DNA of 64,000 nucleotides from positions 1 through 64,000 of the forward strand of contig NIVC01001396.1 in NCBI GenBank assembly GCA_002269645.1. Reading direction: 5' to 3'. Numbering within the stretch: the stretch's first letter is position 1; every line of letters begins with the position of its first letter. Both the position numbers and the translations under genes were made by a program. Origin of the DNA: Macrostomum lignano. Its lineage: Eukaryota. Of this stretch, positions 19,677 through 56,975 are shown piece by piece. Below the pieces are notes generated by a model that searched no databases, had not been told where the DNA came from, and saw nothing but the letters and a program-made list of their open reading frames with translations.

Positions 19677-21305
19677 TCATACAACAGTCGATCTGGCATC
19701 TTTGATGGACTTTTCGGCCTTTTTCTGCCCGTGAACTGTGAGGTCATAGATCAACTCGATGAACTCGCACAGGGTGAGCAGGGACATGCCCAAGTAGATG
19801 CCCATGATGCCGCCCACGTCAGAGATGAAGTTCTGCAGTCCGTAGTCGATGGAAAAGGTCACCTCGTCGCTGAGAACCCGGTCCGGCTTAAAGTGCACCT
19901 TCAGTAGGTTGTTTCTCACGTAGGATATCATAGTCGATTCGTTGCTGTTCAGAAGAAATTCGAGCGCAGGTACGCTTAGGTTCTTCGACTTGGCCCGCAC
20001 CAGGGCCTCTGCGATTGAGGTTCTGACGTACCTGCCGACAGAGGACTGCGAGGGCCAGTCGGAGCTGGAGATGCTCGCACTGTAGGTCAGAGTGTTGCAT
20101 GGCTGTTTGGACTGGCACCTTCTCTTTGTCTCATTGGCAATCAGGTCTACCCGAGCATTTAAATTCTTGTCCCGATAAAACACGAAGAAATTTGGATTGC
20201 CTGTCAGATTCAAAACAAATTTTTTGTCTCTGAGAGGCCACGGGAGCGGACTGATGATACCTGAGAGGTTCACCAGTTCCTGGAACTGCTTGTGGTACTC
20301 GTAGTAGAAACAGTACGAATAGCTGTACTTGTGGCTGTACGGTGTCTGGTCGTATGGGTTCAAAAACTGGACGTCGCTTGTGTCACTGCTGCAATCGAAC
20401 TGTCCTTCCTTCTTCACGTGTCTGGTCATGATCATATTCACCGTGTGATGCTTGCCAGGTGCCAGCGAGAACGAGTCGACAAAGTCTGATGGGTACTCGC
20501 CGGGCGAAGTGAGAAATATTCGAAAGCCCAATCGCCTATCCAGCGTGTTGAAGTCCCTAACCGACAGGGACCAATCTGACACAGGAACCGGCGTGTCTTT
20601 TGTAATGACATAGTCCTCGATAGGGTGACCGGTCGAGTTCATTCCGGCGAAGCTCGAGTCGAGCAGCAGTGTCACATCGAGGCCAGAGGACAGACCCGTC
20701 TGCAGAACCTTGCTCTGCAAGTCGGCGCTCAGAATCCACCGGTAGCAGCGCATGTACCTTGGGTGGTAGAAGCTGGTTGCTGGCAGAGTTTTGTACTCTG
20801 GTAGGCCGTTTCCGTTACTATAAGTTACGTCGCTCGAAATGACATCCTGCTCCGGTCTGTGCGCCAGCTTGTCCACAAGCAGTCTATACGGAAGCGATTG
20901 AAGATTGACGAAGGACGTTTCCATAAACATGCTGATTTGTTCATCTGGACTGTCCGCCACGGTGGCAATCTGCTGCTTCAGTACGTAGTCATTAATGCGC
21001 AGTCGCGAGTTGATCTCGTTTGCCGAGTCGGCATCAATATTAGCCGCATAGCTTGCCGAGATTGGGTTTTCGAAGCAAATGTACACGTCCGGGAACTGGA
21101 AGTGTAAACTGTCGGCCTCAAGCGAGGTTGTCACCTGGCGTTGCTGCAGTTTGATTATGAAATCAATGAAGCCCTTGAAGAAGAGGCCGCTCATAAGCAG
21201 GAAAGCCAGCACCCAGGAAAACCGCACGTGCATCGGTTTACCAGTTACAGTACGAGGAAGACCGTGGGCTGTTGTGGCTTTGAGCGCTGAAATCACTGGA
21301 AGCAT
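19677..21305 (-). CDS. DEG/ENaC/ASIC-family amiloride-sensitive sodium channel subunit, intronless, 542 aa
   Basis: N-terminal HG motif (TTAHGLPR), TM1 (FSWVLAFLLMSGLFF), FPDVYICFENP (FPxVTxC motif), QPCNTLTY...SSSDWPS, and pre-TM2/TM2 FISDVGGIMGIYLGMSLLTLCEFIEL carrying the G-x-S selectivity filter. Confidence 0.92.
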   Translation of the reverse strand: MLPVISALKATTAHGLPRTVTGKPMHVRFSWVLAFLLMSGLFFKGFIDFIIKLQQRQVTTSLEADSLHFQFPDVYICFENPISASYAANIDADSANEINSRLRINDYVLKQQIATVADSPDEQISMFMETSFVNLQSLPYRLLVDKLAHRPEQDVISSDVTYSNGNGLPEYKTLPATSFYHPRYMRCYRWILSADLQSKVLQTGLSSGLDVTLLLDSSFAGMNSTGHPIEDYVITKDTPVPVSDWSLSVRDFNTLDRRLGFRIFLTSPGEYPSDFVDSFSLAPGKHHTVNMIMTRHVKKEGQFDCSSDTSDVQFLNPYDQTPYSHKYSYSYCFYYEYHKQFQELVNLSGIISPLPWPLRDKKFVLNLTGNPNFFVFYRDKNLNARVDLIANETKRRCQSKQPCNTLTYSASISSSDWPSQSSVGRYVRTSIAEALVRAKSKNLSVPALEFLLNSNESTMISYVRNNLLKVHFKPDRVLSDEVTFSIDYGLQNFISDVGGIMGIYLGMSLLTLCEFIELIYDLTVHGQKKAEKSIKDARSTVV

Positions 21306-22603
21306 TGCCGATCTCCTTAGCTACGTGACTTGTGTGATGCGAAGCTACGGAGATGGTCGCAAAAGCGAACTATTGATATTGTCACGAGTTTCGTGTGCAA
21401 GTCATTCTGCTTGAGCTGCTCCTGTGCTAATGAATCAATTTTTTTTCTATTTCCCTGGCATGCGGTTACTGTGCTCAGAATAACTCATTGGGCAGACTTT
21501 TATGAGTCATGAGGACTCTCCCTGGTCTAGTAAAAAATCCTTAACCAATAAGGGAAGCCCCTAATGCTGATTAATCCCCACATCGTTTTTTTTAGTTCGT
21601 CTCTCTTGACAATTCCCTCTCCCTTGGATCGACGCCCAACCCCCTATCTATTGTTTTATTTTTACTCAGATCATTGACCACACGTTGAGCCGGCAGAGAC
21701 CACAGATACTAATATCTGTTATTATATCAATAGTATCAGTGGTAGCGACCACAACCCGAAAACCCATTAGTCGTCAGCCAGAGCTCAATTCCTAATCGAA
21801 GCAATATGGGCGTATTGCTTTCATAATCCCCACAGCGGCACTAAGTGCATTATGGCTACTATAGTCTACCTAACTTGTCTTAGTTAGGTAGACTATAGGT
21901 AGTTAGGCAGTACATCTGATTTGTTAATATTATACGAGCGTATCCAAGTCAGCTGTACTGCAATAAATAATTAATTCACAAGCTCTCGATCTTGAGTGCA
22001 TGCGAGTAAATAAACAACTGGGACTAAATTAGTTGTTCATATTCTGCAGCAGCGTACATAACAAAAGGACACGAAGTCATTTTTTGGTAAAACAACCATC
22101 AAATTTTCGGTAAAGTAAAAGAGATTAACGATTCGCAAGTAGAGCTGAGCTCAGAAATTAAAATCAATAAGCTATATCATTTTTAAGCTTATCAACCTCT
22201 CTCCGCTGTAAAACCTTCAAAGTTTCATTTTAAAAACTTTTGGCGCATGCCATTATCAATTCCAATACCAATACTCACACAGGCACTGGCTGAACCAACT
22301 ACAATTTATGAGTCCAATGACAGCTCTCAACTTGATTGAAAATATACCCCGTAGTGAAGCCATATATGCGCGAGTTATGGCTAAATTTTGTTGCTAAATT
22401 TAGACAAATTGTCAATACCTCAGTTAATAGCTCAGGTAGCTTGCCAGGCATTTTAGGATAGTTATTGACAATTTGAAAATAAATATGAAAGAGGATTTCA
22501 CGCCAGCTCAGGGTGCTGAAGGGTAGAGCCAGAAATTCCGTGATCGCAGAAGTCTAGATATATCTAGCTCGGCGGTCTGGTTCCCGATGTCTGCTAGCGT
22601 GGC

Positions 22604-24048
22604 TGTGAGATTCCATCCCAGAGTGTGAGATTCCATTCCAGAGTGTGAGATCCTATCCCAAAGTGTGAGATTCCATCCGTGAGTGTGAGATTCCATTCCA
22701 GAGTGTGAGATCCTATCCCAGAGTGTGAGATTCCATCCCAGAGTGTAAGATTCCATCCCAGAGTTTGAGATCCTATCCCAGAGTGTGAGAATTCATCTCA
22801 TAATGTGAGATCCCATCCCAGAGTGTGAGAATTCATCTCATAATGTGAGATTTCATCCCAGAGTGTGATATTCCATCCCAGAGTGTGAGATTCCATCCCA
22901 GAGTGTGATATTCCATCCCAGAGTGTGATATTCCATCCCAGAGTGTGAGATTCCATCCCAGAGTGTGAGATTCCATCCCAGAGTGTGAGATTCCATCCCA
23001 GAGTGTGAGATTCCATCCCAGAGTGTGAGATTCCATCCCAGAGTGTGAGATTCCATCCCAGAGTGTGAGACTCCATCCCAGAGTGTGAGATTCCATCCCA
23101 GAGTGTGAGATTCCATCCCAGAGTGTGTTATTCAATCCCAGAGTGTGAGATTCCATCCCAGAGCGTGAGATTCCATCCCAGAGTGTGAGATTCCATTTCA
23201 GAGTGTGAGATCCCATCTCAGAGTGTGAGATTCCATCCTAGAGGGTGAGATTCCATCTCATAATGTGAGATCCCATCCCAGAGTGTGAGATTCCATCCCA
23301 GAGTGTGAGATCCCATCCCAGAGTGTGAGATCCCATCCCAGAGTGTGATATTCCATCCCAGAGTGTGAGATTCCATCCCAGAGTGTGATATTCCATCCCA
23401 GAGTGTGAGATTCCATTTCAGAGTATGAGATCCCATCCCAGAGTGTGAGATTTCATTTTGAGTGTGAGATTTCATTTTAGAGTGTGAGATTTCATTTTAG
23501 AGTGTGAGATTTCATTTTAGAGTGTGAGATCCCATCCTTGAGTGTGAGATTCCATCTCATAATGTGAGATCCCATCCCGGAGTGTGAGATTCCATCCTAG
23601 AGTGTGAGATTCCATCCAAGAGTGTGAGATCCTATCCCAGAGTGTGAGATTCCATCCCAGAGAGTGAGATCCTATCCCACAGTGTGAGATTCCATCCCAG
23701 AGTGTGAGATCCTATCCCAGAGTGTGAGATTCCATCCCAGAGTGTGAGAATTCATCTCATAATGTGAGATCCCATCCCAGAGTGTGAGAATTCATCTCGT
23801 AATGTGAGATCCTATCCCAGAGTGTGAGATTCCATCCCAGAGTGTGATATTCCATCCCAGAGTGTGATATTCCATCCCAGAGTGTGATATTCCATCCCAG
23901 AGTGTGAGATTCCATCCCAGAGTGTGAGATTCCATCCCAGAGTGAAAGATTCCATCCCAGAGTGTGAGATTCCATCCCAGAGTGAAAGATTCCATCCCAG
24001 AGTGAAAGATTCCATCCCAGAGTGTGAGATTCCTCCCCAGAGTGTGAG
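22604..24048. repeat. 20-bp satellite (GAGTGTGAGATTCCATCCCA)n, left part
   Basis: About 70 tandem units read directly from the sequence. Confidence 0.97.
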
Positions 24049-24521
24049 CAACAACAACAACAACAAGATACGTGGCCCTGCAAGCAAAGGTCACAGGTAC
24101 GGCAGGGCGCGTCAGATGGCGCGCCGCAGAGCCTTGGAGCAGTAGCCCTCGGCCTGGGATCACGTGGCCCGCCAGTTGAAGTCACCGCCGGCGCAGGATG
24201 ATGAACGGTCGTTGCAGCTTGGCCCGATCGTACAGGGCCTCGGTCCCGACGCTCTCGTCAACTCGAAAGGCCGCACGGAGCAGCCCTGTGTCCGCCAAGT
24301 CCAGCTGCCGCTCTAGCGTAGCCGTCAGAGTCCACGTCTCGGCGTTGTACAGCAGGACGGTTTCGACCACCGCCTGCCACAGCCGAGCCCTCTGACGGTC
24401 GGGCAGCGCTTCGGACTGGAGGACGGCTCAGATCGAACGAAAGGCCGCCCAGGCAAGTCCTCTGCGCCGCCGGAGGTCTTCCTCCACGTGAGGCACCAGA
24501 CCGCCGAGGTAGGTGAACCGC
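24049..24521 (-). mobile_element. RTE-like non-LTR retrotransposon, 3' part (RT C-terminus plus (TTG)n tail)
   Basis: The minus strand encodes FTYLGGLVPHVEEDLRRRRGLAWAAFRSI, VETVLLYNAETWTLTATLERQLD and ILRRR*LQLAGHVI, and ends in a (TTG)n tract at 24049-24066. It joins in frame to 35355-35632 when the 24522-35348 insert and one TSD copy are removed. Confidence 0.88.
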
Positions 24522-24911
24522 ACTACGTATCGCGCCGTTATGTGTTGATTTTCAGAATTCTGACGCAAAAAACGCAAATTATACTACTATCTGAAAATGA
24601 AGTAAGTAGTATATGAAAATGCTATCCTAAGCGTGATATATGTATACATAGCATATTTCTATATGTACTTGCATATGTACATTAATACAACTGCATTCAT
24701 CCCTATCTATCTCAAAATGGATATATGTACATTAATCCCATGTACATTAATCCCTATCTATCTCAAATGTCCATGTCTATCCCCAATTGTATATGTACGC
24801 AGTACATACATGTGCATTAATCTACATGTACAGTGTCATCCCCAGACGGCCCGCGCGCGCCAAGATTACAACTCGAAACCCTACTACATGTACAATCTCA
24901 TCCAAATGAGT
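24522..24911 (+). repeat. Left terminal inverted repeat (~390 bp)
   Basis: Reverse complement of ~34893-35348, near-identical over the outer ~330 bp with indels toward the inner end; rich in ATGTACAT palindromes. Confidence 0.9.
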
Positions 24912-27900
24912 CAACTAATTGTACAGCTCACATCATATATAAACTATTTACAAAGAAGATATATTTACATTAAATCAGTAGCATATTACAGGAAATAATT
25001 TATGTACAACATTACCAGCGAATAGAATATACAGAAAATTTTACATTGTTTTTCAATATTTTTCTCTTCATAAATGATTTTAAACAGGTCTGACATGCAA
25101 AATATGTACAATAGATTTTTACATTGGCAATTTCGCCGCATACAATACAAAAATGCTTTATGTACATTGAATTATGTACAACAAATAGATTTATTCTGAT
25201 AAATTTAACAATACAACAATATACATTGAATCGTCAGTTATAATTAGATTACATTATTTATAGCCATAAGGCCTGCTGCCGGCCCCGTACACACGTTTTG
25301 TCAGGACGCGCTGAAACGTCTTGTCCATGCTAACAGTGTGTATGGTGCAAGACGCCTTGTCACGCCTGAACTGGAACTGCGGCAGCTGCAGAGAGCCGCC
25401 GTGTAGCAGGGTGTTGCGCAGGTCGTCACTGCGTTCCCGTATCTCCGGAGTCAGGCGGATGCCCTTGCATTTCAGGACCTGGCTGTGGACACCAGCCGCA
25501 TCCTCGACAATGTAAGTGTAGAGCTTGGGCCCCCCACTTACAAAGTCGGTCATCCGGCTACCTGCAGGCACCTCATCGGTCCACATTCCGAGGCTCGTGC
25601 CATGGGGCGGCTCCCATTGACCCTCGGAATGCCGGTAAACGACCCTGTGTGGGAGAGAAAAATGAGATAATTAGTTCCACATGCTAACTATTCAATTCTA
25701 AAAGAATTTTTCCAATGCAATACTTACGAGTCGCTGATTAAAGTAACGGTGTCGGTACTCTAGCAGCATAAACTCGCTGCCAATCGGTTCGCAGGCCTTG
25801 ACTTTGAGGTTGGGGTCGGTCAGCCGGGCGAGCCAGTCCTCGTAGCTGGACACAATCTCGGTCGATGTCAGGTCGTCACGCTGACAAAATTTGCCCCAGA
25901 GCCTGTGTTGTGAAAAGAAAAGCTACTGTTAGTAGAAGAAAATCATTTAAAAACAGAATTTATGAATACTTATGAATTCAAAAAGATTTTCGCTACAAAG
26001 CGAAGTCCTGGGTTGGGCTCGACTTTGTCCAGCGTGACGCCCTCCTTGGCGTAAAAATCGGCAATATAGGCCGCCTTATCTTCATCCGACATGCCGGGGG
26101 AGCCGCTCGATTCGGCCTTCAGCTTGAGGAAGGCATTTACATAATCACCGAACAGACCGGTCCGCTTCTCTGTCCAGTAGGCCAGCGCGTGCACCGCCTG
26201 CAGTCGGTAGCCCAACTGGAAGGCCTTTTGCAGCTCAGGCGTTGCCCAGGTGCCTGTCAGCGCCCGCTCCTGGTCTGAGTGGTTGCAGCCGCCGCACTGC
26301 TGCTGCTCCATACAGGTGCGGCAAAGCCCAAAAAAGAGCTTCTTTTGCACCCTGTATGGCAGCAGCGGAATGTGCAGATCTGACGGCGGCAACACAGTCA
26401 CTTTGGCAATGCCAAAGTAGCTGGCCAGCGCGTCAGAGTTGAGCGTCTGCGGCGTCGGATGTTGCACCGGGTGGCCAATCGGGTACGAGTCCTTTGACTG
26501 CACCGTCGGGTACAGAGAGACCTGCAAGTTGAAATAAAGCATTATTTTTCATAAACTGTATTTTTGCAAAATACATTCTACTATATTAGTAGTATCACTA
26601 CTCACCACATCCCGATATTTGAGAGTCTCAGTCTCGCTGGCCACAGCATGCGGGATAAAACACTCTACGCGGCCGCCATAGAGAGCATCTTCCATCTTGA
26701 GTGGAGCGCGCAGATGGGCAGTTGCGGCGATAAAGTCGGCCTGCGATGCCAATACAGTGTCGTATTCATGCTCCCAAATTGTACGAACACTGTAGTTTTG
26801 CCGCTCCAACTCGCGAGTGAACCACTCGGTTTCGTGGCGAATGTGGCTCAGAGGCTGCCGTTTGAGCGGGTGGACGACATCCTGATCGGGCATACACTGC
26901 TCGCAGCCATGGTAGAAACAACCATGAAACTGCAAGACAGTGTTGCTAGTCTCATCAAAGCCGTCCACCTTGCGGCCGAGAATGACCGCCTCGCCGCCAG
27001 TCGAGTCGCAGGTGCGCAGCCGCCCGCCAAATTCGGTGGCATTCAAATAGGCCAGCCACTTGCGCGCCTTGAACGATTGCTGGTCGGCCTGCCGGGCAAT
27101 CACGCCGACCGAGTTGGGCTCCATGAATTTAGTAGTAAACACGGCCATTGCTAAACTGGCAATCGTATTGGCCTGAACAAACGGTTCCAGGCCGTCACAA
27201 ATGTCGCCAATTATCGACCTGTACTTGATGCAGCCCTCGCGAAGCAGGACTGTGTCACTCAAACAATAATCGAGATACTCCCGATTAAAGTTGAACAACT
27301 CGCCCTGTCGCGAGGCCAGCCAAGCACAGATGGAGCCGTAATCGTTGTTCGCTTTGCCGCCATAATATTCAATAGCCGGGTAGGGGCCAACGTAGTTCCA
27401 ATTAGCCGGCTTGTTAAACTCGTGGGGAAACGTCCCCTTGGCCAGCTTTGTGTCAGCGAGCCCTAGCGCTTTGGGGAATTGCGCAAGCGGGATTGGTATA
27501 AAATTTAACGAATCTTTAAATACCAATTTATCCACCATCATGCTCATTAGCCGGCTGCCCTGGAACAGTACTTGGGGCCGCTTCTTGGCCAGGCCGTTGA
27601 GCAGAGCGTCAAGCAGTAGAAACGCATCATAGCCTGATGCATTATGCGCGACAACAATGGCGCCGCCTCGGAATGTGGTGCTCAGCCAGGTGAAAAAAGC
27701 ATTCAGCGAGGCCGGCCCCACAGCCACAAAATCGGCCATTTGGCAGGCGCAGTCTGAGGGGCTGACGCAATTGGAGAATTCCTCCCCCAGATCGCGGCCA
27801 GTCAGACAGTTGGCGGCGCTATGCAGGCCATTGCAGAGGCGGCAAGTCTCGCGCGGAAACGCCCGGCCGGAGCAGGTCTCGCAGCACGTGACGGCAGTCA

Positions 27901-29965
27901 CCAGATGCACGTGATGCTGCTTCTCCTCGTCCGTGTATGTTTCCGTATCGTAGAACACGTACGGCATAGTGGATGCTTTCACTTTGGGAGCCTTGACGAA
28001 GCACAAATGCGAGCCGGCCTCGTCGTACTGTTTACACAGTGGGCACTTGACATGCCCACACTTGTGTTCCGGCTCCTTTTGCCCGACTTTCAGGTCTTCG
28101 CAATACCCGCATTTGGGGCAGACTCGGACAGAGTCACAGCGAGACCTGCCGGCCCGGTTCTTTCGGCGGTGGTTCTCGAAGCACTGCTGATTGTAGCACT
28201 TGAGGCCACAATCAGCGCAGCGCTTGTAGTCACGCTGCAGGCTCTTGCAGTCGGTGCCGGGCACTTTGCATTGAGGGCAGGTGTTGGCACACTTGTGCTC
28301 TCTAGACTTGCAGTCGTACGCCTGCTGGCACCGGTCACAATAGCGGCGGGCACCGAAAAATGGCGGCACTTTGCAAACAGTGTTAAAGTGCTCGCCAATT
28401 AGGTGCAGATTCAGCACTGTGCTGCCAGGCAGGGCATACACACACGTGTTGCCCTCCTCCGCGCCATACACACGAACGCCGAAATCCCGGCCGGGTGACT
28501 GGGCGTTCAGGGCCGCGAGCAGTTGGGGGAGCACGTCAACCCCGAAAGGCCCGTCCTGTGCAATGGTTGATAAATACTAAAACATTTGTATATTAATAAA
28601 AATGCAAATTAAAATGTGCAAGAACATTTTTACTCACCGAATACAATTTGGCGGCAATCTGAAGCTCCCCAGTCAGCTTCGTCTGCAGTGGGGAGTCGGC
28701 CTTGATGGTCCTCCAAGTTTGCTTAGTGATGGCCTTGGCCTCCAGATCGGCAAAGGCCTTGGCCACCACTAGCGCCCGGATAAGGCATCGCTTATCGCTG
28801 TTGGCAATGACGACGTAGTTGCGTCCCCCAATTGAATGGCGTGCCTGGATGTGGCGCTCCGCCGCATCTAGGCTGCCGCAGCCGCCCCGCGGGACCCAGG
28901 CCTTGAGCAAAAACAATTTAAAGTTGTTGCCCAAGACACTGGAGTCCGACTGCAGAACCTTGTTGATATGTTTAAATATCAGCTCTTCAGTGAAGCGGCT
29001 GCGGCGGACGGGCGGCACGTTAACCGTCAACATCATGTTGTCGGCCGTTGGTTTGGCCGAGATGAAATCGTCGGCTTGCAAATCTGAGCAGAGCACAGAA
29101 ATAATGCCCTCAAACGTGGAGCGAATATCGGTAGTATCTGCTGTCGCGGTGAATGTCACTACATATTCGTAGCCTTTTGCCTTAAATTTAGGCAGAGCTT
29201 TCGCCCCGCCAAGGCGCGCAATGAAGCCTGAAAAAAATGGAGGTTTTGAAATTAGAATTGCGAGAGGCGGCGGCGGGTGAATGACTCATGAAATCAACTC
29301 CTTACCATCGCCTTCGACAGTGTCGGGCTGGGGCGGGGGTTGAAATTGAGCCAAATCTGCAATAAAAATGCGCATGGTGACTAAAATTCTGATCGCTTGG
29401 AATTTTAAAAACTGTCAAAAATTTTTGATTGATTGCCTGCAGCAGCAGCAATTTTATCGCCCCACCCCAAGCAACAGAAATCGGTGAGTTGTAAAAACCC
29501 CAACTCGGCACGTTCCGACACGTAGCAACAAAAGAAATGTGGGGTTGATTGACCCCGCTTCGAATTTTAGGCTGTCAAAAATGTTTGATTGATGACCCCT
29601 GATAACACAGATCCTGCCGCAGCAGACATTGTAAAATTTAAAAAAAAACCCTATCAGCACGTGCCTCCATTGTGCCCCCTTGACACCTAGCAACAATACT
29701 GCGCGGCCGCTTTTGGATTTTTAAAGCTGTCATAAATGTCTGATTAATAACCCTCACTGTAGCAGCCAAGTTTTATTGCTGCCAAAACCCCTACTGTCAA
29801 TTGCAGCGGTGATTACATCATCATGCCCAAAAATCGGGGGGTTGATTTTATCACTGCCGCCAGAATACCGACCCGCCCACCCCGCTGAGTCACGTTCGCG
29901 CTGCAGGATTGCTGTTTTTGCTTCTCTCTAGTTCAAGGATTAGTCACATAACCCCTGAAAGGGGA

Positions 29966-30752
29966 TGTCAACTTAAGCACCAGAATGGAGCCCGAAGTTC
30001 AGCTCCGGACCAAACCGACTGCAATCGATAACTTGTCGGCCCAGACGACTAGAATCGCCGAGACATCCCATCCGGCTCCCTTCCTTGGGGTCCCAGGGGA
30101 TAAAGGGGATAAAATGGGGATCTCATGTCAACTTAAGGCTCTGGAATGGAGCCCGAAGTTCAGCTCCGGACCAAACCGACTGCAATCGATAACTTGTCGG
30201 CCCAGACGACTAGAATCGCCGAGACATCCCATCCGGCTCCCTTCCTTGGGGTCCCAGGGGATAAAGGGGATAAAATGGGGATCTCATGTCAACTTAAGGC
30301 TCTGGAATGGAGCCCGAAGTTCAGCTCCGGACCAAACCGACTGCAATCGATAACTTGTCGGCCCAGACGACTAGAATCGCCGAGACATCCCATCCGGCTC
30401 CCTTCCTTGGGGTCCCAGGGGATAAAGGGGATAAAATGGAATCTCATGTCAACTTAAGGCTCTGGAATGGAGCCCGAAGTTCAGCTCCGGACCAAACCGA
30501 CTGCAATCGATAACTTGTCGGCCCAGACGACTAGAATCGCCGAGACATCCCATCCGGCTCCGTCTCTTGCCGAAACTTCCAACACCCCCGGCGGCTCGGA
30601 TGTGTAACTCAAAGTCTCTCCAGGAGTCACCTTCGTAGCTACCGAGAACCTCCTTGACACGAATTCTAGTCGTCTGGGCCGACAAGTTATCGATTGCAGT
30701 CGGTTTTGTCCGGAGCTGAACTTCGGGCTCCATTCTGGTGCTTAAGTTGACA
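29966..30752. mobile_element. Foldback/MITE-like element with ~90-bp inverted arms (TGTCAAC...GTTGACA); the left arm is amplified in four 160-161-bp tandem units
   Basis: Units start at 29966, 30126, 30287 and 30447. 30663-30752 is the reverse complement of the first ~90 bp. No clear TSD. Confidence 0.7.
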
Positions 30753-31584
30753 TACCCTTTTATGACTATCCTCTACAGGCATTATCCGGCTATACTGCTG
30801 CTGGGGATATTCTCTTATTCTCTAAAACTCTGTTATTTCAACAGGCCTGAATTTGAGAAATCCAGTTCCTCCCTTTACTTCAACATCTATGTCAAGAGGA
30901 AATTCAGAAATTTTAAGCCAAAATGAATGCTCAAGATGAAAAGCAGTGGTTTTCAAAGAAAACCCATATTTCAACAAGCGTTAAGTTTGCAAATCACACA
31001 AATGCTAAAGCTGAAAAGCGCACTTATACAACCCTATTTTTCTACTCGTAATTTTAGATTTTGCAAATGCTAGAGATGAAAATAATTGAGGCTAAATAAT
31101 AAAAAGCAGTTTTTTCAGAGAGTCCTATTATTTCAATAAGCTGAATTTAGAGTTTGCAAAGCAACTCTGAATGCGAAGGGTGAAAAGCAGTTTTACAGTG
31201 GGGCCTCCTATTATTTCAATAAGCCTTATTTTGAGTTTGCGAAGCCAAATGAATGCCAAAGATGAAAAAGCAGTTTTTACAGTGAGGCAGGCCCGATGTG
31301 TTTAATATTCACGTAACCATGATTTTAAATTTCCGCCAAACTACGCTTAACAACGCATTTTTGTTAGAACGAAATCTTTGTTTTAATGGGTTTGTTTTAT
31401 TCGGGAAAATTATTTTGTTAAACCGCTATAAAGAAATTTGTTTATTCACGACCCGCGCACCCCACCTCCCCCTTTTTGAGACTATAAATACAAGCGATTG
31501 CGGGCAATTTCCCCTTTGCCCGCCGTTTCCTCGATTCGGTCAAGAAAAGCAAAACGTGTTGTCTTAGTCACTGGAAAGCAAGAC

Positions 31585-31732
31585 AGGAGAGAAAGCTGTA
31601 AGAGGCCAGAAAAGCCGTAAGAGGCCAAGAAAGCTGTGAGAAGCCAGAAAAGCCGTAAGAGGCCAAGAAAAACTGTAAGAAGCCAGAAAAAGCCGTAAGA
31701 GGCCAGGAAAGCTGTGAGAAGCCAGAAATAGA
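31585..31732. repeat. ~19-21-bp tandem repeat (GAGGCCAGAAAAGCCGTAA)
   Basis: About 7 degenerate units. Confidence 0.75.
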
Positions 31733-32619
31733 CGGTTGACAAGTCGGGCAACTCCTTCCCAGGGAGCCCGCAACTAAATATAGGGAATTAATAGTAGTAA
31801 TAATAATAGTAGTGAGATTCATAACTACATGTAGACCAGTGTTTGCCGCTCGACACTGCTACCAGGGCGACTTGCATAGATTCAAGGAGTCCTTAGATTA
31901 GAATTCTAGACTTGATATTTTCTAAGAAGCAGCAATTGACTAAGCAATTTTATGGAGTAATAACTATTCTAAATTACAACAACTTGATTCTGTAGTGTGA
32001 TTATAAACTAGGAAGTGTATAGCCCTGGTATAACTTGGTGGCATAGTGGAATAAGAATACCATAATAGTAAAGACACCTACAACAACTTGGTGCTTGCGG
32101 TAGGATAATTTCTAGAGAGAGAGTTTAGGCCTGCAACAACTTGGTAACAGCAGTGGGATCTTAACAGACAGAAATACCCCCTGGTACAACAGATAACAGC
32201 CCTATATTATTCAATAATCCCGAATTTGGAGTTTCGTAAAAGATAAAGATGAAAAATAAATTTTTACACAGACTTGCAAGACTCACCTAGCTGTCGTCCC
32301 CTCTTTGCGGCCGGAGGCTGAGGCTGAGACTGCTGTTGTGAGGGGCCTGCTCGCCCCCACAAAGCTGAAATGGCGGCTTCAGCGGCTGGGCGTTTTGATG
32401 CCATGCTTCTGCTGCTGCTGCTGCTGTGCTGGTGCGATTGTGGTTGATGCTGCTGTGTTGCCGCTGTTGCAGGCTGATGCTGTTGAAGCAGTTGATGCTG
32501 CTGTTGTTGCTTTTGTTGCTGCTGCTGCGGTGCTGATGCTGCTGCTGTGTTGCCGCTGTTGCAGGCTGATGCTGTTGCTGGCTACTTCTGCTGATGCGGC
32601 TGCACCAGCACTCACCCGC

Positions 32620-32627
32620 TTTATATA
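32620..32627 (-). promoter_or_regulatory. Candidate TATA box (TATATAAA) for the pPolB transcript
   Basis: TATATAAA on the minus strand ~215 bp upstream of the putative ATG at 32404, followed by a CAG/CAA-rich leader. Confidence 0.45.
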
Positions 32628-32699
32628 CCTCGCGAGAGGGAGGATGGGGTAGGGGCATGAGAAGTGTGCGTGATTTTCTTTCCTGGGTCTATATTTTCT

Positions 32700-33200
32700 A
32701 GATTAGTGTACGATTGTACACTCGGTTCCACATTTGGTATAGAAAAGTTGGGGTCGAAAATACCCCGCCAATTCTTTTCTCATGCGGTATTTTATTGGAT
32801 CTAAGCGGAGCCAGCCAACCGGCACTCTCGCAGGAGTGAAATTGCGACTTCGCCAGAGACAGTCTCTCAAAGAAGAAGACCGCTTCCTCTTGCAGCATGT
32901 CTATTCGACTTGAATTGGATAGAAAACGGTGTTTATCCAGAAAATAATTGGCAGAAGTTGACCAACGTAATGTTTAGGGATGGACCTGGGTTATAGGGAC
33001 AGAGAGTCAGTTATGGCATTTAAGCGGTGGTAAAGAATTGCCTTGGTGAGGCTGGGGTAGGTGTTGTGTTGTTCTTTCCATATTGGCGAACATTAATAGT
33101 CCTGGGTTGAATTTTGAATATGGCTAGAATGTATAGCGAAGAATCGTTGAATTGAAGGGTGACTCAACATGCAGTGTGTGCAACAAAACCGATTCAGTGC
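32700..33200 (-). mobile_element. Possible highly degraded LINE RT remnant inside the Polinton-like element
   Basis: Only faint motif traces (LLMFAN.., GIFDPNFS), broken by stops and frameshifts. Confidence 0.25.
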
Positions 33201-34311
33201 ATCTAAAAGAGGCTGTTGTGAGCTTCAGAACAGAGAATAACGTTTAAAATAGCATCAATGGCATGATTTAGTAATTGAATGCTGAAAACTTTTAGTTTAA
33301 TAGCGACCTGTGTTTTTAGCCCCAATTTTTACAGTGTCTATAGAATATTTCCCCAGCTTCTAGGGCAATATACCAGTACATGCCTATTTGAATGACAAAA
33401 CAGCATTTTTGATGGTTTATTAGCTGAAATTATGATTTCTATTGATAAAATGGCAGATTTCGATCCATAAAGTAAGCATTTTAACGTTAAGAATCGAAAA
33501 ATGAGAAAACTCGTGTTTTTCATTAAAAAGTTTGCATTTCTATTTTTTTACCATTCACCAACTATTTCTGGGCTGAGCTGGGCTGGCTTGTGGACTTCCG
33601 TGTGGGATTCATTCCTGCTTCGAAGCCGTCTCAAGTAAAGTTGAAACGGCATTTGGACAAATTACTCGTAGCTGTTGAAATGATGTTTTCCAGTGATGAA
33701 ATTACTGATTTTGATCAACAAAGTCTAACTTGAAACGGTAAAAATTAAAAAAACTGGAGAAAACTCGCCTTTTATGAAATGTGCTTTTTACGAGCTAGCA
33801 ATTTAGCTTTTAATAAACTTGGACGGAATTCCAACTTGGAGAGGTCAGTGGGTGATTCATTCCTGCTTCGAGAGATCGAACTTTCATAGAGTCTGAAAGT
33901 TTGAAGTGAGAGGGCAGGGGAAGCGATTGGTTCAATTCGATTTGCTATATGGGTCTGCTGACCATTAGAGGGGTGGCTGTTTTCAAACAGTCTTGGGGTT
34001 GAATTTTGAACATGGCCAGAGATAAAGGGTGATTCAACATGCAACAATTAATTCCATAGTGTACACACGCGTCAGTGGCATATTTTGCGGATTAAAGCGC
34101 GACAAGGGGTCTTGTATCATCTGCACTATCAATAGATATATAAAACATTGCTTTCACAGTCTTGATTTAGAGGCCAACTAAATAAATATATACGTATCAA
34201 AGCTCGGCCGGCTTTTTGTGTAAATATATATATACGCCTTTTGAAAACTTATTTGACTCTGGGAGAGGTGACGAGGGCTGAATTCTAGAAGGTGAAGTAT
34301 GGAAGGAGTGG

Positions 34312-34677
34312 GGGGGGCCGTAGCCCAGCGGTAGCGCAGCTGCTCTGGTGTGCCAGCGACCCAGGCTCGATTCCAAGTGCAGTCACATTAATTTGGGGCT
34401 GAATTGGAATCTCGGCTTGGCTCTGCTCGTGCAATTAACGGCCTTGAGAGCCAACCCCCCAAGGCGCAGTGAAGTGTACATGCCTAACGATAAAAATAAA
34501 GTTAAGGCCGCTGTACACTCCTGTGTGAGTGTGTGCCTGCGTACGTATCCGCGCGCTTGTATGCCTGCTCAGGGGAGTCGGCGGAATGGGCAGTAATGCC
34601 TCTCGCCGGTTGTGTGCCAAATGTCGCTTAAAGTGCGCCAGGGTGCACACAACCCCCCTGCCTCTAATAAAAAAGAA
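34312..34677 (+). mobile_element. tRNA-derived SINE (~365 bp) with 13-bp TSD ATGGAAGGAGTGG
   Basis: A-box TAGCCCAGCGG (34321-34331), B-box GGCTCGATTCC (34364-34374), A-rich tail TAATAAAAAAGAA, TSD at 34299-34311 and 34678-34690. A second copy lies at 55713-56095. Confidence 0.88.
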
Positions 34678-34892
34678 ATGGAAGGAGTGGAGATAACAGT
34701 GTGGACAGCGATTTTTGGCTGACTCATGCCTCCTCTCCGCCAATTTTGGGGGATGGGTGGCGGTTTCTGCGTACACTGTTTGCTTTCTGTGGATCAGCAG
34801 ATCATGAAGAGTTAATTCTTGGATGTGCGGCCACACTGCACTTTGCAAATTTTGGGTTGGTGGGCGCTTCTGCATGCTGTTTCAACTATTGA

Positions 34893-35348
34893 AAACTCAT
34901 TTGGTAATAGTAGATGAGATTGTACAGCGCGCGCGTACACCAATTCTCACCTCTGCGCACAACTGTACACACGTAGTAGGGTTTCGAGTTGTACATGTAA
35001 TCTTGGTGCGCGCGCGCGGGCCGTCTGGGGATGACACTGTACATGTAGATTAATGCACATGTATGTACTGCGTACATATACAATTGGGGATAGACATGGA
35101 CATTTGAGATAGATAGGGATTAATGTACATGGGATTAATGTACATATATCCATTTTGAGATAGATAGGGATTAATGCAGTTGTATTAATGTACATATGCA
35201 AGTACATATAGAAATATGCTATGTATACATATATCACGCTTAGGATAGCGTTATCATATACTACTTACTTCATTTTCAGATAGTAGTATAATTTGCGTTT
35301 TTTGCGTCAGAATTCTGAAAATCAACACTTAACGGCGCGATACGTAGT
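34893..35348 (-). repeat. Right terminal inverted repeat (~455 bp)
   Basis: Inverted copy of 24522-24911, with extra internal sequence near 34930-34975 relative to the left TIR. Confidence 0.9.
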
Positions 35349-35354
35349 AACCGC

Positions 35355-35632
35355 TGGCAGCGTGCGAGCCTGGTCGTCTGCCCGTCTGCGCCGCGGCACG
35401 TCAGGTCAGCTGGGATTTCGGCCGGCACAGTCAGCACCTCGGTCTTCAGCGTGTTGACGATCAGACCAACGCTCGATGCCACCTCAACCAGCCTGTCGAT
35501 CTGGCGCTGGGCACCTTCAACGGACGACGACAGGAGGGCGAGGTCGTCGGCGTAGCCAAGCACGCTTAGGCGCTTTTCGCCATGGTGGTGACCGATGCGT
35601 CTGCACAGCAGGAAGCCGTCATTAGCCGAGGG
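35355..35632 (-). mobile_element. RTE-like LINE, 5'-truncated part of the same copy as 24049-24521
   Basis: The minus strand encodes DGFLLCRR...LSVLGYADDLALLSSSVEGAQRQIDRLVEVASSVGLIVNTLKTEVLTVPA...RLARCQR, with the RT YADD motif. Confidence 0.9.
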
Positions 35633-37935
35633 GAGTGTGAGATTCCATCCCAGAGTGTGATATTCCATCCCAGAGTGTGAGATTCCATCCCAGAGTGTGA
35701 GATTCCATCCCAGAGTGTGAGATTCCATCCCAGAGTGTGATATTCCATCCCAGAGTGTGATATTCCATCCCAGAGTGTGAGATTCCATCCCAGAGTGTGA
35801 GATTCCATCCCAGAGTGTGAGATTCCATCCCAGAGTGTTAAATTCCTCCCCAGAGTGTGATATTCCATCCCAGAGTGTGATATTCCATCCCAGAGTGTGA
35901 GATTCCATCCCAGAGTGTGAGATTCCATCCCAGAGTGTGAGATTCCATCCCAGAGTGTGAGATTCCATCCCAGAGTGTGAGATTCCATCCCAGAGTGTGA
36001 GATTCCATCCCAGAGTGTGAGATTCCATCCCAGAGTGTGATATTCCATCCTAGAGTGAAAGATTCTATTCCAGAGTGAAAGATTCCATTTCAGAGTGTGA
36101 GATTCCATCTCTGCAGAGTGTGAGATCCCATCATAGAGTGCGATTCCATCCCAGAGTGTAAGATTCCATCCCAGAGTGTAAGATTCCATCCCAGAGTGTG
36201 AGATTCCATCCCAGAGTGTGAGATTCCATCCCAGAGTGTGAGATTCCATCCCAGAGTGTTCCATCCCAGAGTGTGAGATTCCATCCCAGAGTGTGAGATT
36301 CCATCCCAGAGTGTGAGATTCCATCCCAGAGTGTGAGATTCCATCCCAGAGTGTGAGATTCCATCCCAGAGTGTGAGATTCCATCCCAGAGTGTGATATT
36401 CCATCCCAGACTGTGAGATTCCATCCCAGAGTGAAAGATTCCATCCCAGAGTGTGAAATTCCGTCCCAGAGTGTGAGATTCCATCCCAGAGTGTGATATT
36501 CCATCCCAGAGTGTGAGATTCCATTTCAGAGTGTGAGATCCCATCTCAGAGTGTGAGATTCCATCCTAGAGGGTGAGATTCCATCTCATAATGTGAGATC
36601 CCATCCCAGAGTGTGAGATCCCATCCCAGAGTGTGAGATTCCATCCCAGAGTGTGAGATCCCATCCCAGAGTGTGAGATTTCATTTTAGAGTGTGAGATT
36701 TCATTTTAGAGTGTGAGATTTCATTTTAGAGTGTGAGATCCCATCCTTGAGTGTGAGATTCCATCTCATAATGGGAGATCTTATCCCAGAGTGTGAGATT
36801 CCATCCCAGAGTGTGAGATCCTATCCCACAGTGTGAGATTCCATCCCAGAGTGTGAGATCCCATCCTAGAGTGTGAGAATTCATCTCATAATGTGAGATC
36901 CCATCCCAGAGTGTGAGAATTCATCTCATAATGTGAGATCCCATCCCAGAGTGTGAGAATTCATCTCGTAATGTGAGATCCTATCCCAGAGTGTGAGATT
37001 CCATCCCAGAGTGTGATATTCCATCCCAGAGTGTGATATTCCATCTCAGAGTGTGATATTCCATCCCAGAGTGTGAGATTCCATCCCAGAGTGTGAGATT
37101 CCATCCTTGAGTGTGAGATTCCATCCCAGAGTGTGAGATTCCATCCCAGAGTGTGATATTCCATCCCAGAGTGAAAGATTCCATCCCAGAGTGTGAGATT
37201 CCTCCCCAGAGTGTGAGATTCCTCCCCAGAGTGTGAGATTCCATCCCAGAGTGTGAGATTCCATCCCAGAGTGTGATATTCCATCCCAGAGTGTGATATT
37301 CCATTCCAGAGTGTGATATTCCATCCCAGAGTGTGATATTCCATTTCAGAGTGTGATATTCCATCCCAGAGTGTGAGATTCCATCCCAGAGTGTGAGATT
37401 CCATCCCAGAGTGTGAGATTCCATCCCAGAGTGTGAGATTCCATCCCAGAGTGTGAAGTTCCATCCCAGAGTGTGAAGTTCCATCCCAGAGTGTGAGATT
37501 CCATCCCAGAGTGGAAGATTCCATCCCAGAGTGTGATATTCCATTCCAGAGTGTGATATTCCATCCCAGAGTGTGAGATTCCATTTCAGAGTGTGAGATT
37601 CCATCCCAGAGTGGAAGATTCCATCACAGAGTGAAAAATTCCATTTCAGAGTGTGAGATTCCATCCCAGAGTGTGAGATTCCATCCCAGAGTGTGATATT
37701 CCATCCCAGAGTGTGATTCCATCCCAGAGTGTGAGATTTTATCCCAGAGTGTGAGATTCCATCCCAGAGTGTTAGATTCCATCCCAGAATGTGAGATCGC
37801 TTCCCAATGAGTGAGATCCCATCGCAGAGGGTGATATTCAATTGCAGAGGGCGAGATCACATCCCAGAGGGTGAGATCCCATCCTAGAGGGTGAGATCCC
37901 ATCCCAGAGTGTGAGATCCCATCCCAGAGGGTGAG
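35633..37935. repeat. 20-bp satellite (GAGTGTGAGATTCCATCCCA)n, right part
   Basis: About 115 units, same unit and orientation as 22604-24048; degenerates to GAGGGTGAGATCCCATCCCA at the right end. Confidence 0.97.
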
Positions 37936-50057: not shown

Positions 50058-53000
50058 TTAATTCTCTTTAAACTGCAGCTTCACCTTCTTACTATTATTA
50101 CTAGTAGTAGTAGTCGCAGAGGCAGCCCCATTGTCTGCAGTGAAACTGGCACCAGATGTAGAAGCGGTAGAACCGCCAACCCTGGCTAAAAAAGCCATAG
50201 CCTTTCGTTTACGTTCGAGCTGCTTACGAATATAGTTATCATCAGCTGAAGTCGATTGCTGCTGCTGTTGCTGACTGACTGTTGCTTGACCTGACAGTTG
50301 CTGTTCCTCCTTATGTTGCCGTTGCATCGACAGAACTTTTCGACACTCCTCTAGCCGACCGCACTTCATCAGATAATATGGATGATACCGATGGCTGGAT
50401 TGTAGAAAATCAAATCTAGAATCGGATCGAGCCTTGACAACGGCTTCAAAATCTGTGCCATTGCGCTGTACATAAGCTGCCAATTTGTCAATGATGAGTT
50501 TGGTCTCTTCATCGGCTGGCTGGTTGCACTGCACAGCCAGCTCGATCTCAGCTGGGATTGCTGATTGAGAATCGGTCAGCTCACCGCTTGCAGAGGTAGC
50601 CGTGGGCGCCGGCGGCGGCGGCGGAGGGGGCGGCGGTGGCGGCGGCGGCGGCTGATGATAAGCCATGAGCACTGCTTGCTGCTCCTGCTGTTGCTGCTGT
50701 TGCTGCTGCTGTTGCTGCTCGTCTTCCTGTTCTTGCTGGCGTTGGCGGAACTGTTCCAATAATTTAGCATAAGAAGTGCCCGCTGTACTGACTTTTGGTA
50801 GGCTGATTGAAGTGGCAGCGGCGGAGGAAGACTGCGGCGCGTGATGCAGGTCGTCTGGCGCCAGGTTCATTGGTCTGGAGTGCGTTTAAATGGAGTGCGT
50901 ATCAACTGAGATCTCAGGGTGAGACTAATACGAGACTATGAGACTAATACGAGACTAATACGAGACTATGAGACTAATACGAGACTAATAAGAGACTATG
51001 AGACTAATATGAGGCTAATATGAGACTATGAGACTAATACGAGACTAATAAGAGACTATGAGACTAATATGAGGCTAATATGAGACTATGAGACTAATAT
51101 GAGACTAATAAGAGACTACGAGACTAATATGAGACTAATATGAGACTGAGACTAAGAGACTAATATGAGACTAGTATGAGACTGAGAATTATATGAGACT
51201 ATAAGACTAATATGAGACTAATACGAGACTATGAGACCAATATGAGGCAAATATGGGACTTATGAGACTAATATGAGACTAATAAGAGACTATGAGACTA
51301 ATATGAGACTGAGACTAATATGAAACTAATATGAGACTAGTATGAGACTGAGACTAAGAGAATAATATGAGACTAGTATGAGACTGAGACTAAGAGACTA
51401 ATATGAGACTAGTATGAGACTAAGAGACTAATATGAGCCTAATACGAGACTGTGAGACCAATATGAGGCTAATATGAGACTATGAGACTAATATGAGACT
51501 AATAAGAGACTATGAGACTAATATGAGACTAATATGAGACTAGTATGAGACTGAGACTAATATAAGACTAATAAGAGACTAATATGAGACTAGTATGAGA
51601 CTGAGAATTATATGAGACTATAAGACTAATATGAGACTAATATGAGACTATGAGACTAATATGAGGCTAATATGGGACTATGAGACTTATATGAGACTAA
51701 TATGAGACTAATAAGAGACTATGAGACTAATATGAGACTAATATGAGACTAGTATGAGACTGAGACTAATATAAGACTAATAAGAGACTAATATGAGACT
51801 AGTATGAGACTGAGAATTATATGAGACTATAAGACTAATATGAGACTAATACGAGACTATGAGACCAATATGAGGCTAATATGGGACTATGAGACTAATA
51901 TGAGACTAATAAGAGACTATGAGACTAATATGAGACTGAGACTAATATGAAACTAATATGAGACTAATATGAGACTGAGACTAAGAGACTAATATGAGAC
52001 TAGTATGAGACTAAGAGACTAATATGAGCCTAATACGAGACTGTGAGACCAATATGAGGCTAATATGAGACTATGAGACTAATATGAGACTAATAAGAGA
52101 CTATGAGACTAATATGAGACTAATATGAGACTAGTATGAGACTGAGACTAATATAAGACTAATAAGAGACTAATATGAGACTAGTATGAGACTGAGACTA
52201 ATATGAAACTAATAAACAAAGCAGTATTAAAACTCACTTAGGCGGCGCCAGAGGCACATAACGACCCTGCCGGATGGCCTCCAACACCAGTCGATAATAA
52301 GGATAGAGTTCGTCGCCATAGCTTAAAAATCGAAAACTAGCATTGCCACTCTGTTTAGTTTTCAATACAATTTCCATCTGCGGCCCGTGCCTGGCCAGGA
52401 ACTGGGCAGTCTTGTCAATTATGGCCCCCTGTCGCTTGGTCATTGGCATTCGCATATCGCGAGGCACGTCTAAATTGATTGGAACAGCAAATGGTTCGCT
52501 GTCTGCCTCTTCTTCTGGTGTTGCTGAGGCTGCTGCTGCTGCTGCTGCTGCTGCCGCTGCATCGGTTGCAGGCTCTACCAAGCTTGACTGAGCCGTCATT
52601 GCTGTAGAATTCGAGTCGCCGTTGCTGTCCTTCGACGCCGACTCCGAATAGTTGAAGGCCACTTCGCTGAATGACGATTTATTAGCCATGGCAACTCGCT
52701 TCTGGTGCTCCTCTGCATTTGGAGGTTATTAGGACTGTATTAGAGTAATCGGGGCAGTTATTAGTTGGGACTGTATTACAGTAATCAGGGCAGTTATTAG
52801 AACTGTTTTACAGTAATCAGGGCAGTTATTATGACTGTATTACAGTAATCAGGGCAGTTATTAGGACTGTATTACAGTAATCGGGGCAGTTATTAGGACT
52901 GTATTACAGTAATCAGGGCAGTTATTAGAACTGTATTACAGTAATCAGGGCAGTTATTAGAACTGTATTACAGTAATCAGGGCAGTTATTAGAACTGTAT

Positions 53001-56000: not shown

Positions 56001-56975
56001 CAAATTAATGTGACTGCACTTGGAATCGAGCGGCTTCGAGCCTAGGTCGCTGGCACACCAGAGCCTACGCTAGACTGCTAGGCTATGGCCCCCCTTTCTC
56101 ACTTGTTACTGAATTGGCTATTATCCAAATGGCTGTTACTGAATTGGTTATGCTTTGTTACCAAAGTAGACTAACTATAATTTAGACTAGGTAAATAATC
56201 TAGAATCCTAAACCTAAAAAAGGCCAAAATTCAAAAATGTCTAATACTAATAGGCTTTTGACTTAGTAGTTTCATTATTAATAATAGATATTTTAATGAT
56301 AGGCTTTTAGTTTTTTGGGAAGATTAAGTTAAAAGATTTTATTGTTAGTTAGTTAGAGTCAAATGATATAATAATTAATAATATTTAAAAAACTTTTCTA
56401 AAAATACATACACCAAGTATTTTTTTATAAAACTATAAGTTTAAAATATTAGAATATTTCAAATTTGAAAACTATTATTTATATAATTAATTATAATTCT
56501 TATTTAAAGTAGATAAAATACTTATCATTTTCAAATAGCCTAGGTTGTATATTGTACTTAGTGATATCAAGCCTATCTATATATATATAGACTTAGAATT
56601 TACAGGATTTAGCTATTGCAATGGTCGGCCTATATGGCAAATTGGTTTATTTAGATAAACCAATGCTATAATAATATAATATAGGTTTAGCTAGATAAAA
56701 GGGTTCTTAAGTTAAAAAATAAATCAATTTAATATGAATGCTACAATTGATAGGGTAATATTTTAAAATAATACTTACCTATCAATTAAAATTTCTTGAT
56801 CAGCAGTCCAAGGAATTAAATATTTTCCAGAGTTAATTTCAATGTACTTTTGACTATCATGATAAATGTTGCAGGAATAGCCTTGTAGAAACAACTTTGA
56901 AAACTCATCTTCGTCCTCATCGTCATCATCATATTCTGAGAAGAATCGAAATGCCCCATTCGATCCTCCAGCCAT
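50058..56975 (-). CDS. SFSWAP: Splicing factor suppressor-of-white-apricot homolog, ~553 aa. Exons 56779-56975, 53575-53747, 52238-52712, 50058-50874
   Basis: DRY_EERY-type N-terminal domain (LFLQGYSCNIYHD...GKYLIPWTADQEILIDR|FDVRG...EAECEKERYL), SURP1 (AIIDKTAQFLARHGPQMEIVLKTKQ..N.SFRFL...LYPYY) and SURP2 (IIDKLAAYVQRNGTDFE...RFDFLQSSHRYHPYY). Splice phases are consistent and the total of 1662 nt is a multiple of 3. Confidence 0.9.
50922..52213. repeat. (GAGACTAATAT / GAGACTAT)n satellite filling SFSWAP intron 3
   Basis: Mixed 6-11-bp GAGACT-core units over ~1.3 kb. Confidence 0.95.
52724..53450. repeat. ~31-32-bp minisatellite (CAGGGCAGTTATTAGGACTGTATTACAGTAAT) in SFSWAP intron 2
   Basis: About 23 units. 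Confidence 0.95.
55713..56095 (-). mobile_element. tRNA-derived SINE, second copy, 9-bp TSD TTCTCACTT
   Basis: Colinear reverse complement of 34312-34677; TTCTCACTT at 55704-55712 and 56096-56104; lies in SFSWAP intron 1. Confidence 0.85.

Follow-up and report, generated by a model that had tools for sequence, protein, structure and literature searches.

Can the polymerase gene of a mobile DNA element hold spliceosomal introns within its catalytic motifs, and can such an element move when it carries little else? Both questions are raised by a locus of Macrostomum lignano on contig NIVC01001396.1, of which a stretch of 64,000 nucleotides (hereafter the window) was studied. A preliminary description of the window had proposed that a virus-type gene for pPolB, the family B DNA polymerase that is primed by a protein, is split here by up to six spliceosomal introns and has taken on the architecture of a host gene. 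We consider it probable that this locus holds a defunct member of a family of polymerase-only elements with six old spliceosomal introns, and that in a two-part Polinton this family would be the half that serves replication.

Results

The polymerase gene in the window

The gene consists of the following parts, in the order of transcription.

32620..32627, minus strand: TATATAAA box, located upstream of the ATG by about 220 nt
32287..32404, minus strand: exon 1, coding part, 39 codons with basic patches resembling a nuclear localization signal, phase-1 donor; ATG at 32404
29357..32286, minus strand: intron 1, 2930 bp, GT-AG, phase 1
31282..32189, unstranded: one of two insertions private to this copy within intron 1, about 908 bp
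29961..30757, unstranded: the other private insertion within intron 1, which has inverted ends, contains a 161-bp tandem array and resembles a miniature inverted-repeat transposable element (MITE), ~797 bp
29306..29356, minus strand: exon 2, 51 bp (45 bp in subfamily B)
29228..29305, minus strand: intron 2, 78 bp, GT-AG, phase 1
28638..29227, minus strand: exon 3, encoding the predicted terminal-protein region and the initial half, with the Cys motif, of the vOTU-like domain
28556..28637, minus strand: intron 3, 82 bp, GT-AG, phase 0
26606..28555, minus strand: exon 4, encoding the vOTU His motif, a Cys-rich region, the exonuclease motifs, the VSR-like insert and the initial half of motif A
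26522..26605, minus strand: intron 4, 84 bp, GT-AG, phase 0, within motif A
25974..26521, minus strand: exon 5, motif A through motif B
25903..25973, minus strand: intron 5, 71 bp, phase 2, within motif B, AT donor in this copy
25728..25902, minus strand: exon 6, broken near 25732, motif C lost, frame shifted
25645..25727, minus strand: intron 6, 83 bp, GT-AG, phase 2 in sister copies, at the end of motif C
25254..25644, minus strand: exon 7, up to the stop codon
25190..25195, minus strand: AATAAA, 61 nt past the stop

All six intervals proposed in the preliminary description as introns were found at the same coordinates, and each ends in CAG after a pyrimidine-rich tract. The short introns measure 71-84 bp, and five of the six introns begin with GT. 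The exception, intron 5, has an AT donor in the window copy, where the sister copies have GT (18/19) or GC (1/19). The AT-richness ascribed to the short introns is evident from a GC content of 0.24-0.31 against 0.55-0.63 in the exons, except in intron 2 (0.44). As had been described, intron 4 interrupts motif A and intron 5 motif B.

Starting at the ATG (32404), the phases stay consistent as far as exon 6, but the continuous frame expected after intron removal does not extend into the last exon. Exon 6 is 113 bp shorter than that of the sister copies, and translation stops after 23 codons in the last exon. Because this deletion removes motif C and shifts the frame, the window copy is a pseudogene that cannot encode a working polymerase. 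The interval and phase of the 2.9-kb first intron also fit, but its length is inflated by the two private insertions (~797 and ~908 bp) and is an accident of this copy; intron 1 measures 931-1240 bp in 12 of 13 sister copies and 5561 bp in the other. The MITE-like insertion has very high depth in one DNA run. The proposed first exon has a homologue in subfamily B, with an ATG, a basic patch and a phase-1 GT donor; its junction is absent among the RNA joints listed below. The TATATAAA box is present at 11 of 19 sister loci, and three of these 11 lack the entire 5′ half of the gene. In six family A copies (L019-L022, L029-L032, L037-L038 and L043-L044), 2.7-5.3 kb separate the ATG from the first donor, the extra length being insertions within the CAG-rich exon 1.

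The family has the layout of a protein-primed polymerase (terminal protein, vOTU, exonuclease, palm); its terminal-protein region is predicted, and the window copy has lost motif C by deletion. Pfam PF03175 matches exons 4 and 5. The VSR-like insert between the exonuclease and the palm carries DGFD and FHGCFYHGC motifs, and a relative in the databases bears the name VSR protein. When the exons were scored singly against a profile of 59 non-Macrostomum polymerases, exons 4-7 tiled it at 896|897, 1081|1083 and 1177|1179, with no gap or overlap. The 12 close database proteins are all labelled Macrostomum lignano, and several of the exon junctions are already joined in automatic UniRef gene models. 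A sequence search of the PDB with one family protein gave no match, an NCBIfam scan added nothing to the other domain calls, and none of the viral contigs fitted the patterns of a relative.

Conservation of the introns in two families

A 200-residue piece of exon 4 matched the genome 129 times. Family A, to which the window copy belongs, accounts for 22 full-length matches at 95-100% identity, and a second subfamily, B, for 45 near full-length matches at 62-71%; the proteins of A and B are 67% identical. We compared 19 sister loci of family A, 10 of family B and later one extra family A locus. Several of them are probably allelic duplicates, which affects the copy counts.

Introns were present at 85 of the 85 sister sites that could be resolved (three more could not be anchored). 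The donors are GT at 83 of the 85, with one GC and one AA, the acceptors are AG at 82 of the 85, and the lengths vary through all three classes modulo 3. This presence at every site, with variable length and preserved GT/AG ends, exceeds what chance would give. The comparison across copies that the preliminary description had suggested thus revealed no site lacking its intron. In subfamily B all six introns have the same positions and phases as in family A: introns 3-6 were read in four copies, the splice sites of exons 4-7 are intact in 10/10, and introns 1 and 2 stand at matching positions with a homologous first exon in 9/9.

The ratio of nonsynonymous to synonymous divergence (dN/dS) is 0.106 within A (n=36 pairs), 0.097 within B (n=28) and 0.155 between them (n=9), which indicates that the polymerase exons are under purifying selection. 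The corresponding dS values are 0.17, 0.08 and about 1.8. Since all six introns are shared across a dS of about 1.8, they are old. Homologous introns 4-6 of A and B can no longer be aligned; 283, 317 and 47 of 500 shuffles, respectively, scored equally well. The introns of the window are also mutually unrelated, with nine of ten pairs at shuffle level and a weak score for introns 5 and 6 (reached by 2/300 shuffles). The hallmark of introners, namely repeated, mutually similar and recent copies, is therefore not seen, as the pairs are at shuffle level and the introns are fixed in both subfamilies, although no genome-wide search for repeats of the introns was made.

Eight of ten subfamily B copies pass all checks over exons 4-7. 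A small divergent gene accompanies all 10 B copies and occurs at four A loci, and the window lacks it. In family A it matches Pfam PC4 (E 6.7e-06); its counterpart in B shares 43% identity with the A version.

Splicing in RNA-type contigs

We searched for splice joints in the contigs of four runs, probably of RNA, that three studies had produced, using as reference the sister copy L012, which is free of both intron 1 insertions. The RNA status of the runs is a guess, none of them being recorded as RNA, and the genomic copies themselves served as the DNA control. In line with the splicing first proposed, exact GT..AG joints from family members were observed. The joints of introns 4 and 6 each occur in four of the four runs. 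That of intron 5 occurs in two, from copies other than the window, and that of intron 2 in one, as a weak match of a single contig with a 25-base side. The introns are thus spliceosomal and spliced at the family level. The spliced contigs include the stretch deleted from exon 6 of the window, so they derive from other copies. At the intron 3 acceptor of the window, one RNA-type contig stops with about 99 letters left over, and pieces of a DNA-like run cross through this intron.

Introns at catalytic motifs

Introns 4, 5 and 6 are the only ones in the polymerase domain, and they cut motifs A, B and C, respectively. Their sites lie at the 94.6th, 99.6th and 98.9th percentiles of local conservation, and that of intron 3 at the 13.8th. 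In a set of 209 database relatives, biased toward long proteins, the whole motif is present in 202 (A), 167 (B) and 197 (C). Intron 4 (26522-26605) is in frame and free of stops in 12 of 18 family A sisters, where its retention would insert 27-29 residues into motif A; the window copy has a stop in it.

The element and its insertion site

The gene lies within an element delimited by the following features.

24281..24515, minus strand: interrupted reverse-transcriptase frame of a long interspersed nuclear element (LINE), 3′ part
24516..24521, plus strand: left target-site duplication AACCGC, 6 bp
24522..35348, unstranded: whole element, polymerase-only, family A, 10,827 bp, ends 5′-ACTAC...GTAGT-3′
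24522..24860, plus strand: terminal inverted repeat, 339 bp, 4 mismatches against the opposite arm
32700..35009, unstranded: non-coding arm, common to many gene-less palindromic derivatives
about 34178-34269: 93-bp stretch of this arm, 96% identical to the arm of the putative partner element (see below)
34312-34674: high-copy insertion inside the non-coding arm, resembling a short interspersed nuclear element (SINE)
35010..35348, minus strand: terminal inverted repeat, second arm, first 19 nt identical to an integrase/capsid element end at L210:7195
35349..35354, plus strand: right target-site duplication AACCGC, 6 bp
35355..35640, minus strand: interrupted LINE reverse-transcriptase frame, 5′ part (Pfam RVT_1, E 8.7e-05)

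The element has split a LINE reverse-transcriptase frame. In the sister copies the inverted repeats measure about 250-1400 bp, and insertion-free elements of A and B are about 8.8-9.7 kb each. Exact 6-bp duplications of varied sequence flank 44 of the 46 ACTAC-ended elements in which both ends were read.

The ACTAC pattern is matched by 109 termini, of which 56 are distinct. Bases 9-27 of the ends (24530-24548 and 35322-35340 in the window) form a mosaic among copies, with few alleles per position, whereas bases 1-8 and the TTTT at base 28 are constant; within a copy, the left and right ends usually match. This mosaic suggests exchange between termini.

Around the element, the same 20-bp tandem repeat lies on either side of the LINE fragment that has been interrupted (22604-24048 and 35633-37935). 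A second SINE-like copy lies at 55713-56094; by eye both copies have a tRNA-like head, and ARAGORN called no tRNA in the window. Two host open reading frames (ORFs), both on the minus strand, encode an amiloride-sensitive sodium channel (19677-21320; Pfam ASC, E 3e-45) and a Surp-module protein (50058-50885).

A probable partner element with integrase and capsid genes

Searches of the ORFs and by tblastn in 14 A/B elements and the window found neither an integrase nor a double-jelly-roll capsid protein, and a packaging ATPase and an adenovirus-like protease are also absent from the A/B elements. An element with an integrase and a capsid gene was found through the most distant integrase match (38%). 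Its integrase matches rve (E 1.8e-08), and the model of a 433-aa protein folds like the major capsid proteins of PBCV-1 and Sputnik (E about 1e-13). Further ORFs show, by eye, a Walker A motif and protease-like residues, with 36% identity to an ORF of group 4 (see below). No polymerase or PC4 was found in the one copy searched. This element is about 10 kb long; a second copy, about 10.2 kb by coordinates, has no room for a polymerase, and relatives occur on 28 contigs at 93-99% identity.

In both ends that were read, bases 1-27 are of the family A type and the next 23 bases of the B type; one end is identical to that of the window at 19/19 bases. The gene sets of A/B and of this element are thus complementary, and their termini match (one end in each of two partner copies). 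Because it has integrase and capsid genes, no polymerase and ends of family A type, we take it, as judged from sequence, to be likely that the two are halves of a two-part Polinton, one with the polymerase and one with the integrase and capsid. Searches by shared ends led to no partner: among 15 A-ended stretches, three contained polymerase and 12 were gene-less or contained unrelated transposons or other ORFs, and no Polinton integrase or capsid occurred in 15 B-ended stretches (from the first 100 of 226 matches), five further A-ended ones and two more.

Other Polintons and gene-less derivatives

This genome also houses further integrase families, three or more in number, which have dozens of copies and likewise make 6-bp duplications. 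Where read, the ends of these other Polinton groups start with AGTAG, and they have no DNA in common with A/B. Integrase groups 1, 3 and 4 and the 60% and 87% subgroups were considered as a dedicated partner and rejected on such ends where these were read. A distant polymerase of their own is present in groups 2 and 4, in one copy as a single frame of 1312 aa. Groups 1 (L094-L101, L110-L113) and 3 (L114-L133) carry an integrase and an A32 ATPase, together with an F5/8 type C protein and a nuclease resembling Eco47II, and D5/PriCT primase-helicase ORFs adjoin group 1. Group 4 (L141-L146, L154-L158) is a complete Polinton of 12-13 kb with a chromodomain integrase and with ORFs resembling PC4 and TBP (the latter Pfam TBP, E 3e-21, L142:7023-7583); one copy is nested within a B-type palindromic element. 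A genome search for the Pox_A32 family was blank and is uninformative, as ATPase ORFs exist there.

Gene-less palindromic elements have the same ends and 6-bp duplications as A/B, which shows that they are acted on in trans. Such copy-back elements (L015-L018, L049-L050, L074, L077, L080, L083, L089 and L173-L192) are 3.9-9.9 kb long, have A- or B-type ends, and contain either no gene or only the 3′ half of the polymerase gene. An A-ended palindrome at L081:4648-9375 encloses an ORF of 769 aa (no Pfam match) and a CIDE-N ORF of 542 aa, possibly as cargo or a nested element.

Discussion

Proposed mechanism

Working sister copies would be transcribed by RNA polymerase II and then spliced, and the mRNA would encode a polyprotein that joins terminal protein, vOTU, exonuclease and polymerase and has its nuclear signal in exon 1; the vOTU may free the terminal protein from it. 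Linear DNA would then be copied by protein priming from the ACTAC ends, which would serve both halves and the gene-less passengers. Template switching may produce the palindromic copy-back forms seen in both families, and the integrase of the partner would insert any molecule with these ends. As this DNA-to-DNA copying would never pass through mRNA, introns once gained would stay; with no reverse-transcription step to purge them, they would persist. These steps draw in part on adenovirus biology. They also draw on Polinton biology as covered in parts of PMC11161782.

Several points weigh against this account. Only four of 21 family A copies pass every check over exons 3-7. Regarding splicing, introns 1 and 3 have no joint among the best 15 of 23 joints; the contigs differ by several percent from L012; the runs are guessed to be RNA, were available as contigs only, and include no DNA run in the joint test; and run X1 shows DNA-like cover. 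Regarding the motifs, the siting test (three of six, P about 0.003) was post hoc, intron 4 reaches only the 94.6th percentile and intron 3 the 13.8th, and just one of 14 short database relatives ends at one of these sites (motif C). Regarding the partner, the capsid model has a pLDDT of 62 and was built from eight sequences, the protease and ATPase are by-eye calls with no Pfam hit below 0.01, the absence of polymerase was tested directly in one rearranged copy (the second is colinear by coordinates), and each of two copies is known by one end, too little to read a target duplication from. The shared ends show common handling, not mutual dependence.

The motif-cutting introns most likely reflect biased gain or retention at invariant sites, a view that we favour by a modest degree over a regulatory switch. 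A more far-reaching form of the two-part Polinton, which we regard as doubtful, is a true bipartite integrating virus, with one integrase/capsid segment, two polymerase segments and a passenger swarm exchanging a 27-base code, in which the motif introns act as a splicing lock.

Alternative explanations

A and B may instead be satellites that borrow the integrase of complete resident Polintons, the ACTAC integrase/capsid element being an independent degenerate Polinton. The at least three other integrase families, numerous and also leaving 6-bp duplications, could supply the activity, and dependence on the partner is deduced from comparison of sequences rather than from experiment. However, AGTAG is the end sequence of the other groups, which have no DNA in common with A/B, whereas the partner has the variable terminal 27 bases of family A and the 93-bp arm stretch of the window, and lacks exactly what A/B carry. 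We therefore consider this alternative unlikely, though it is the strongest of the three.

If the gene were instead a host gene, domesticated and carried along passively as segments of the genome were duplicated, this would account for the introns, the TATA box, the polyA signal and the purifying selection, and some loci are indeed near-identical allelic or duplicated copies. Each copy, however, has inverted repeats and its own 6-bp duplication at an unrelated site (44/46), and the window copy splits a LINE frame with inverted ends that differ at only 4 of 339 bases, which makes this explanation very improbable. That the short intervals are later introner-like insertions into dead copies of an intronless gene, as might be imagined from the dead window copy, from intron 4 being in frame and stop-free in 12/18 sisters and from introners in dinoflagellate Polinton-like proviruses (in parts of PMC11957031), is the least credible explanation and is largely refuted by the same six sites in both subfamilies with none missing at 85, the spliced joints, the purifying selection on the exons and the lack of similarity among the introns (nine of ten pairs).

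Comparison with known systems

Families A and B share the vOTU Cys/His pPolB with Polintons/Mavericks and the Alpha class of adintoviruses (OTU and pfam03175 PolB, in the sections consulted of PMC8502044 and PMC11161782). Long inverted ends, many dispersed copies and the 6-bp target-site duplication, which part of PMC8097293 gives as a Maverick criterion, are also held in common. Unlike Polintons/Mavericks, the A/B element lacks integrase, capsid, ATPase and protease.

The ACTAC ends differ from the AGTAG of the other Polintons in this genome and from the 5′-AG termini that Kapitonov and Jurka reportedly assigned to Polintons in 2006. A second departure is the six introns in a core gene expected to be intronless. 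The premise that Polinton core genes are intron-poor is borne out by passages of PMC8097293, where intact vertebrate Mavericks have no introns, and of 10.1101/2022.07.12.499685, where the core genes of nematode Mavericks are intronless and introns occur in cargo only.

The nuclease-like insert is shared with the VSR-type pPolB2 Polintons of a marine nematode and molluscs, which, in the relevant part of PMC10748475, are complete and integrase-linked, as A/B are not. Bidnaviruses, in a portion of PMC8502044, resemble A/B and the partner in having pPolB and other genes on segments with matching ends; they are single-stranded, with a parvovirus-like capsid and no integrase, whereas here both parts integrate and the capsid is of the double-jelly-roll type. 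The dinoflagellate proviruses likewise have introns within Polinton-like elements; their introners are recent and repeated in the account excerpted from PMC11957031, whereas the present introns are old, fixed, mutually unrelated and spliceosomal. The group I introns of protist Polinton-like viruses are ribozymes (part of PMC12220804), in contrast to the spliceosomal introns here.

The present introns differ from inteins in showing no sign of homing. Inteins and self-splicing introns in family B polymerases concentrate at motifs A, B and C, and inteins home by nuclease. Adenovirus E2B polymerase transcripts are spliced pPolB mRNAs with a short first exon; to our knowledge, adenoviruses do not integrate and have no introns in catalytic motifs. 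As adenoviruses use both a TATA box and splicing, these features are not specifically those of a host and do not support the host gene architecture first proposed for the locus.

A search from which Repbase, subscription papers and supplements were excluded turned up neither a core polymerase split by introns nor a Polinton in two parts. It also found no account of Macrostomum Polintons, only a co-mention of the two names in PMC10379824, on Tc1/mariner. What is new here is a second, long-diverged polymerase family with all six introns and the ends of the partner, and the finding that the window copy is dead.

Implications

Surveys for long integrase-linked frames, such as that in PMC10748475 with its filter of at least 900 aa and linkage to integrase (as given in part of that source), miss families that are split by introns and lack an integrase. 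A multi-copy DNA element that has kept six introns over a dS of about 1.8 is a natural test bed for intron gain, and the siting bias toward catalytic motifs is a question for such studies on this family. If a splicing lock exists, the host cell type would decide when active polymerase is produced. If the separation of polymerase from integrase and capsid is true, it would be a case of genome-integrated segmentation among double-jelly-roll viruses, in a laboratory flatworm in which expression and insertion polymorphism can be measured.

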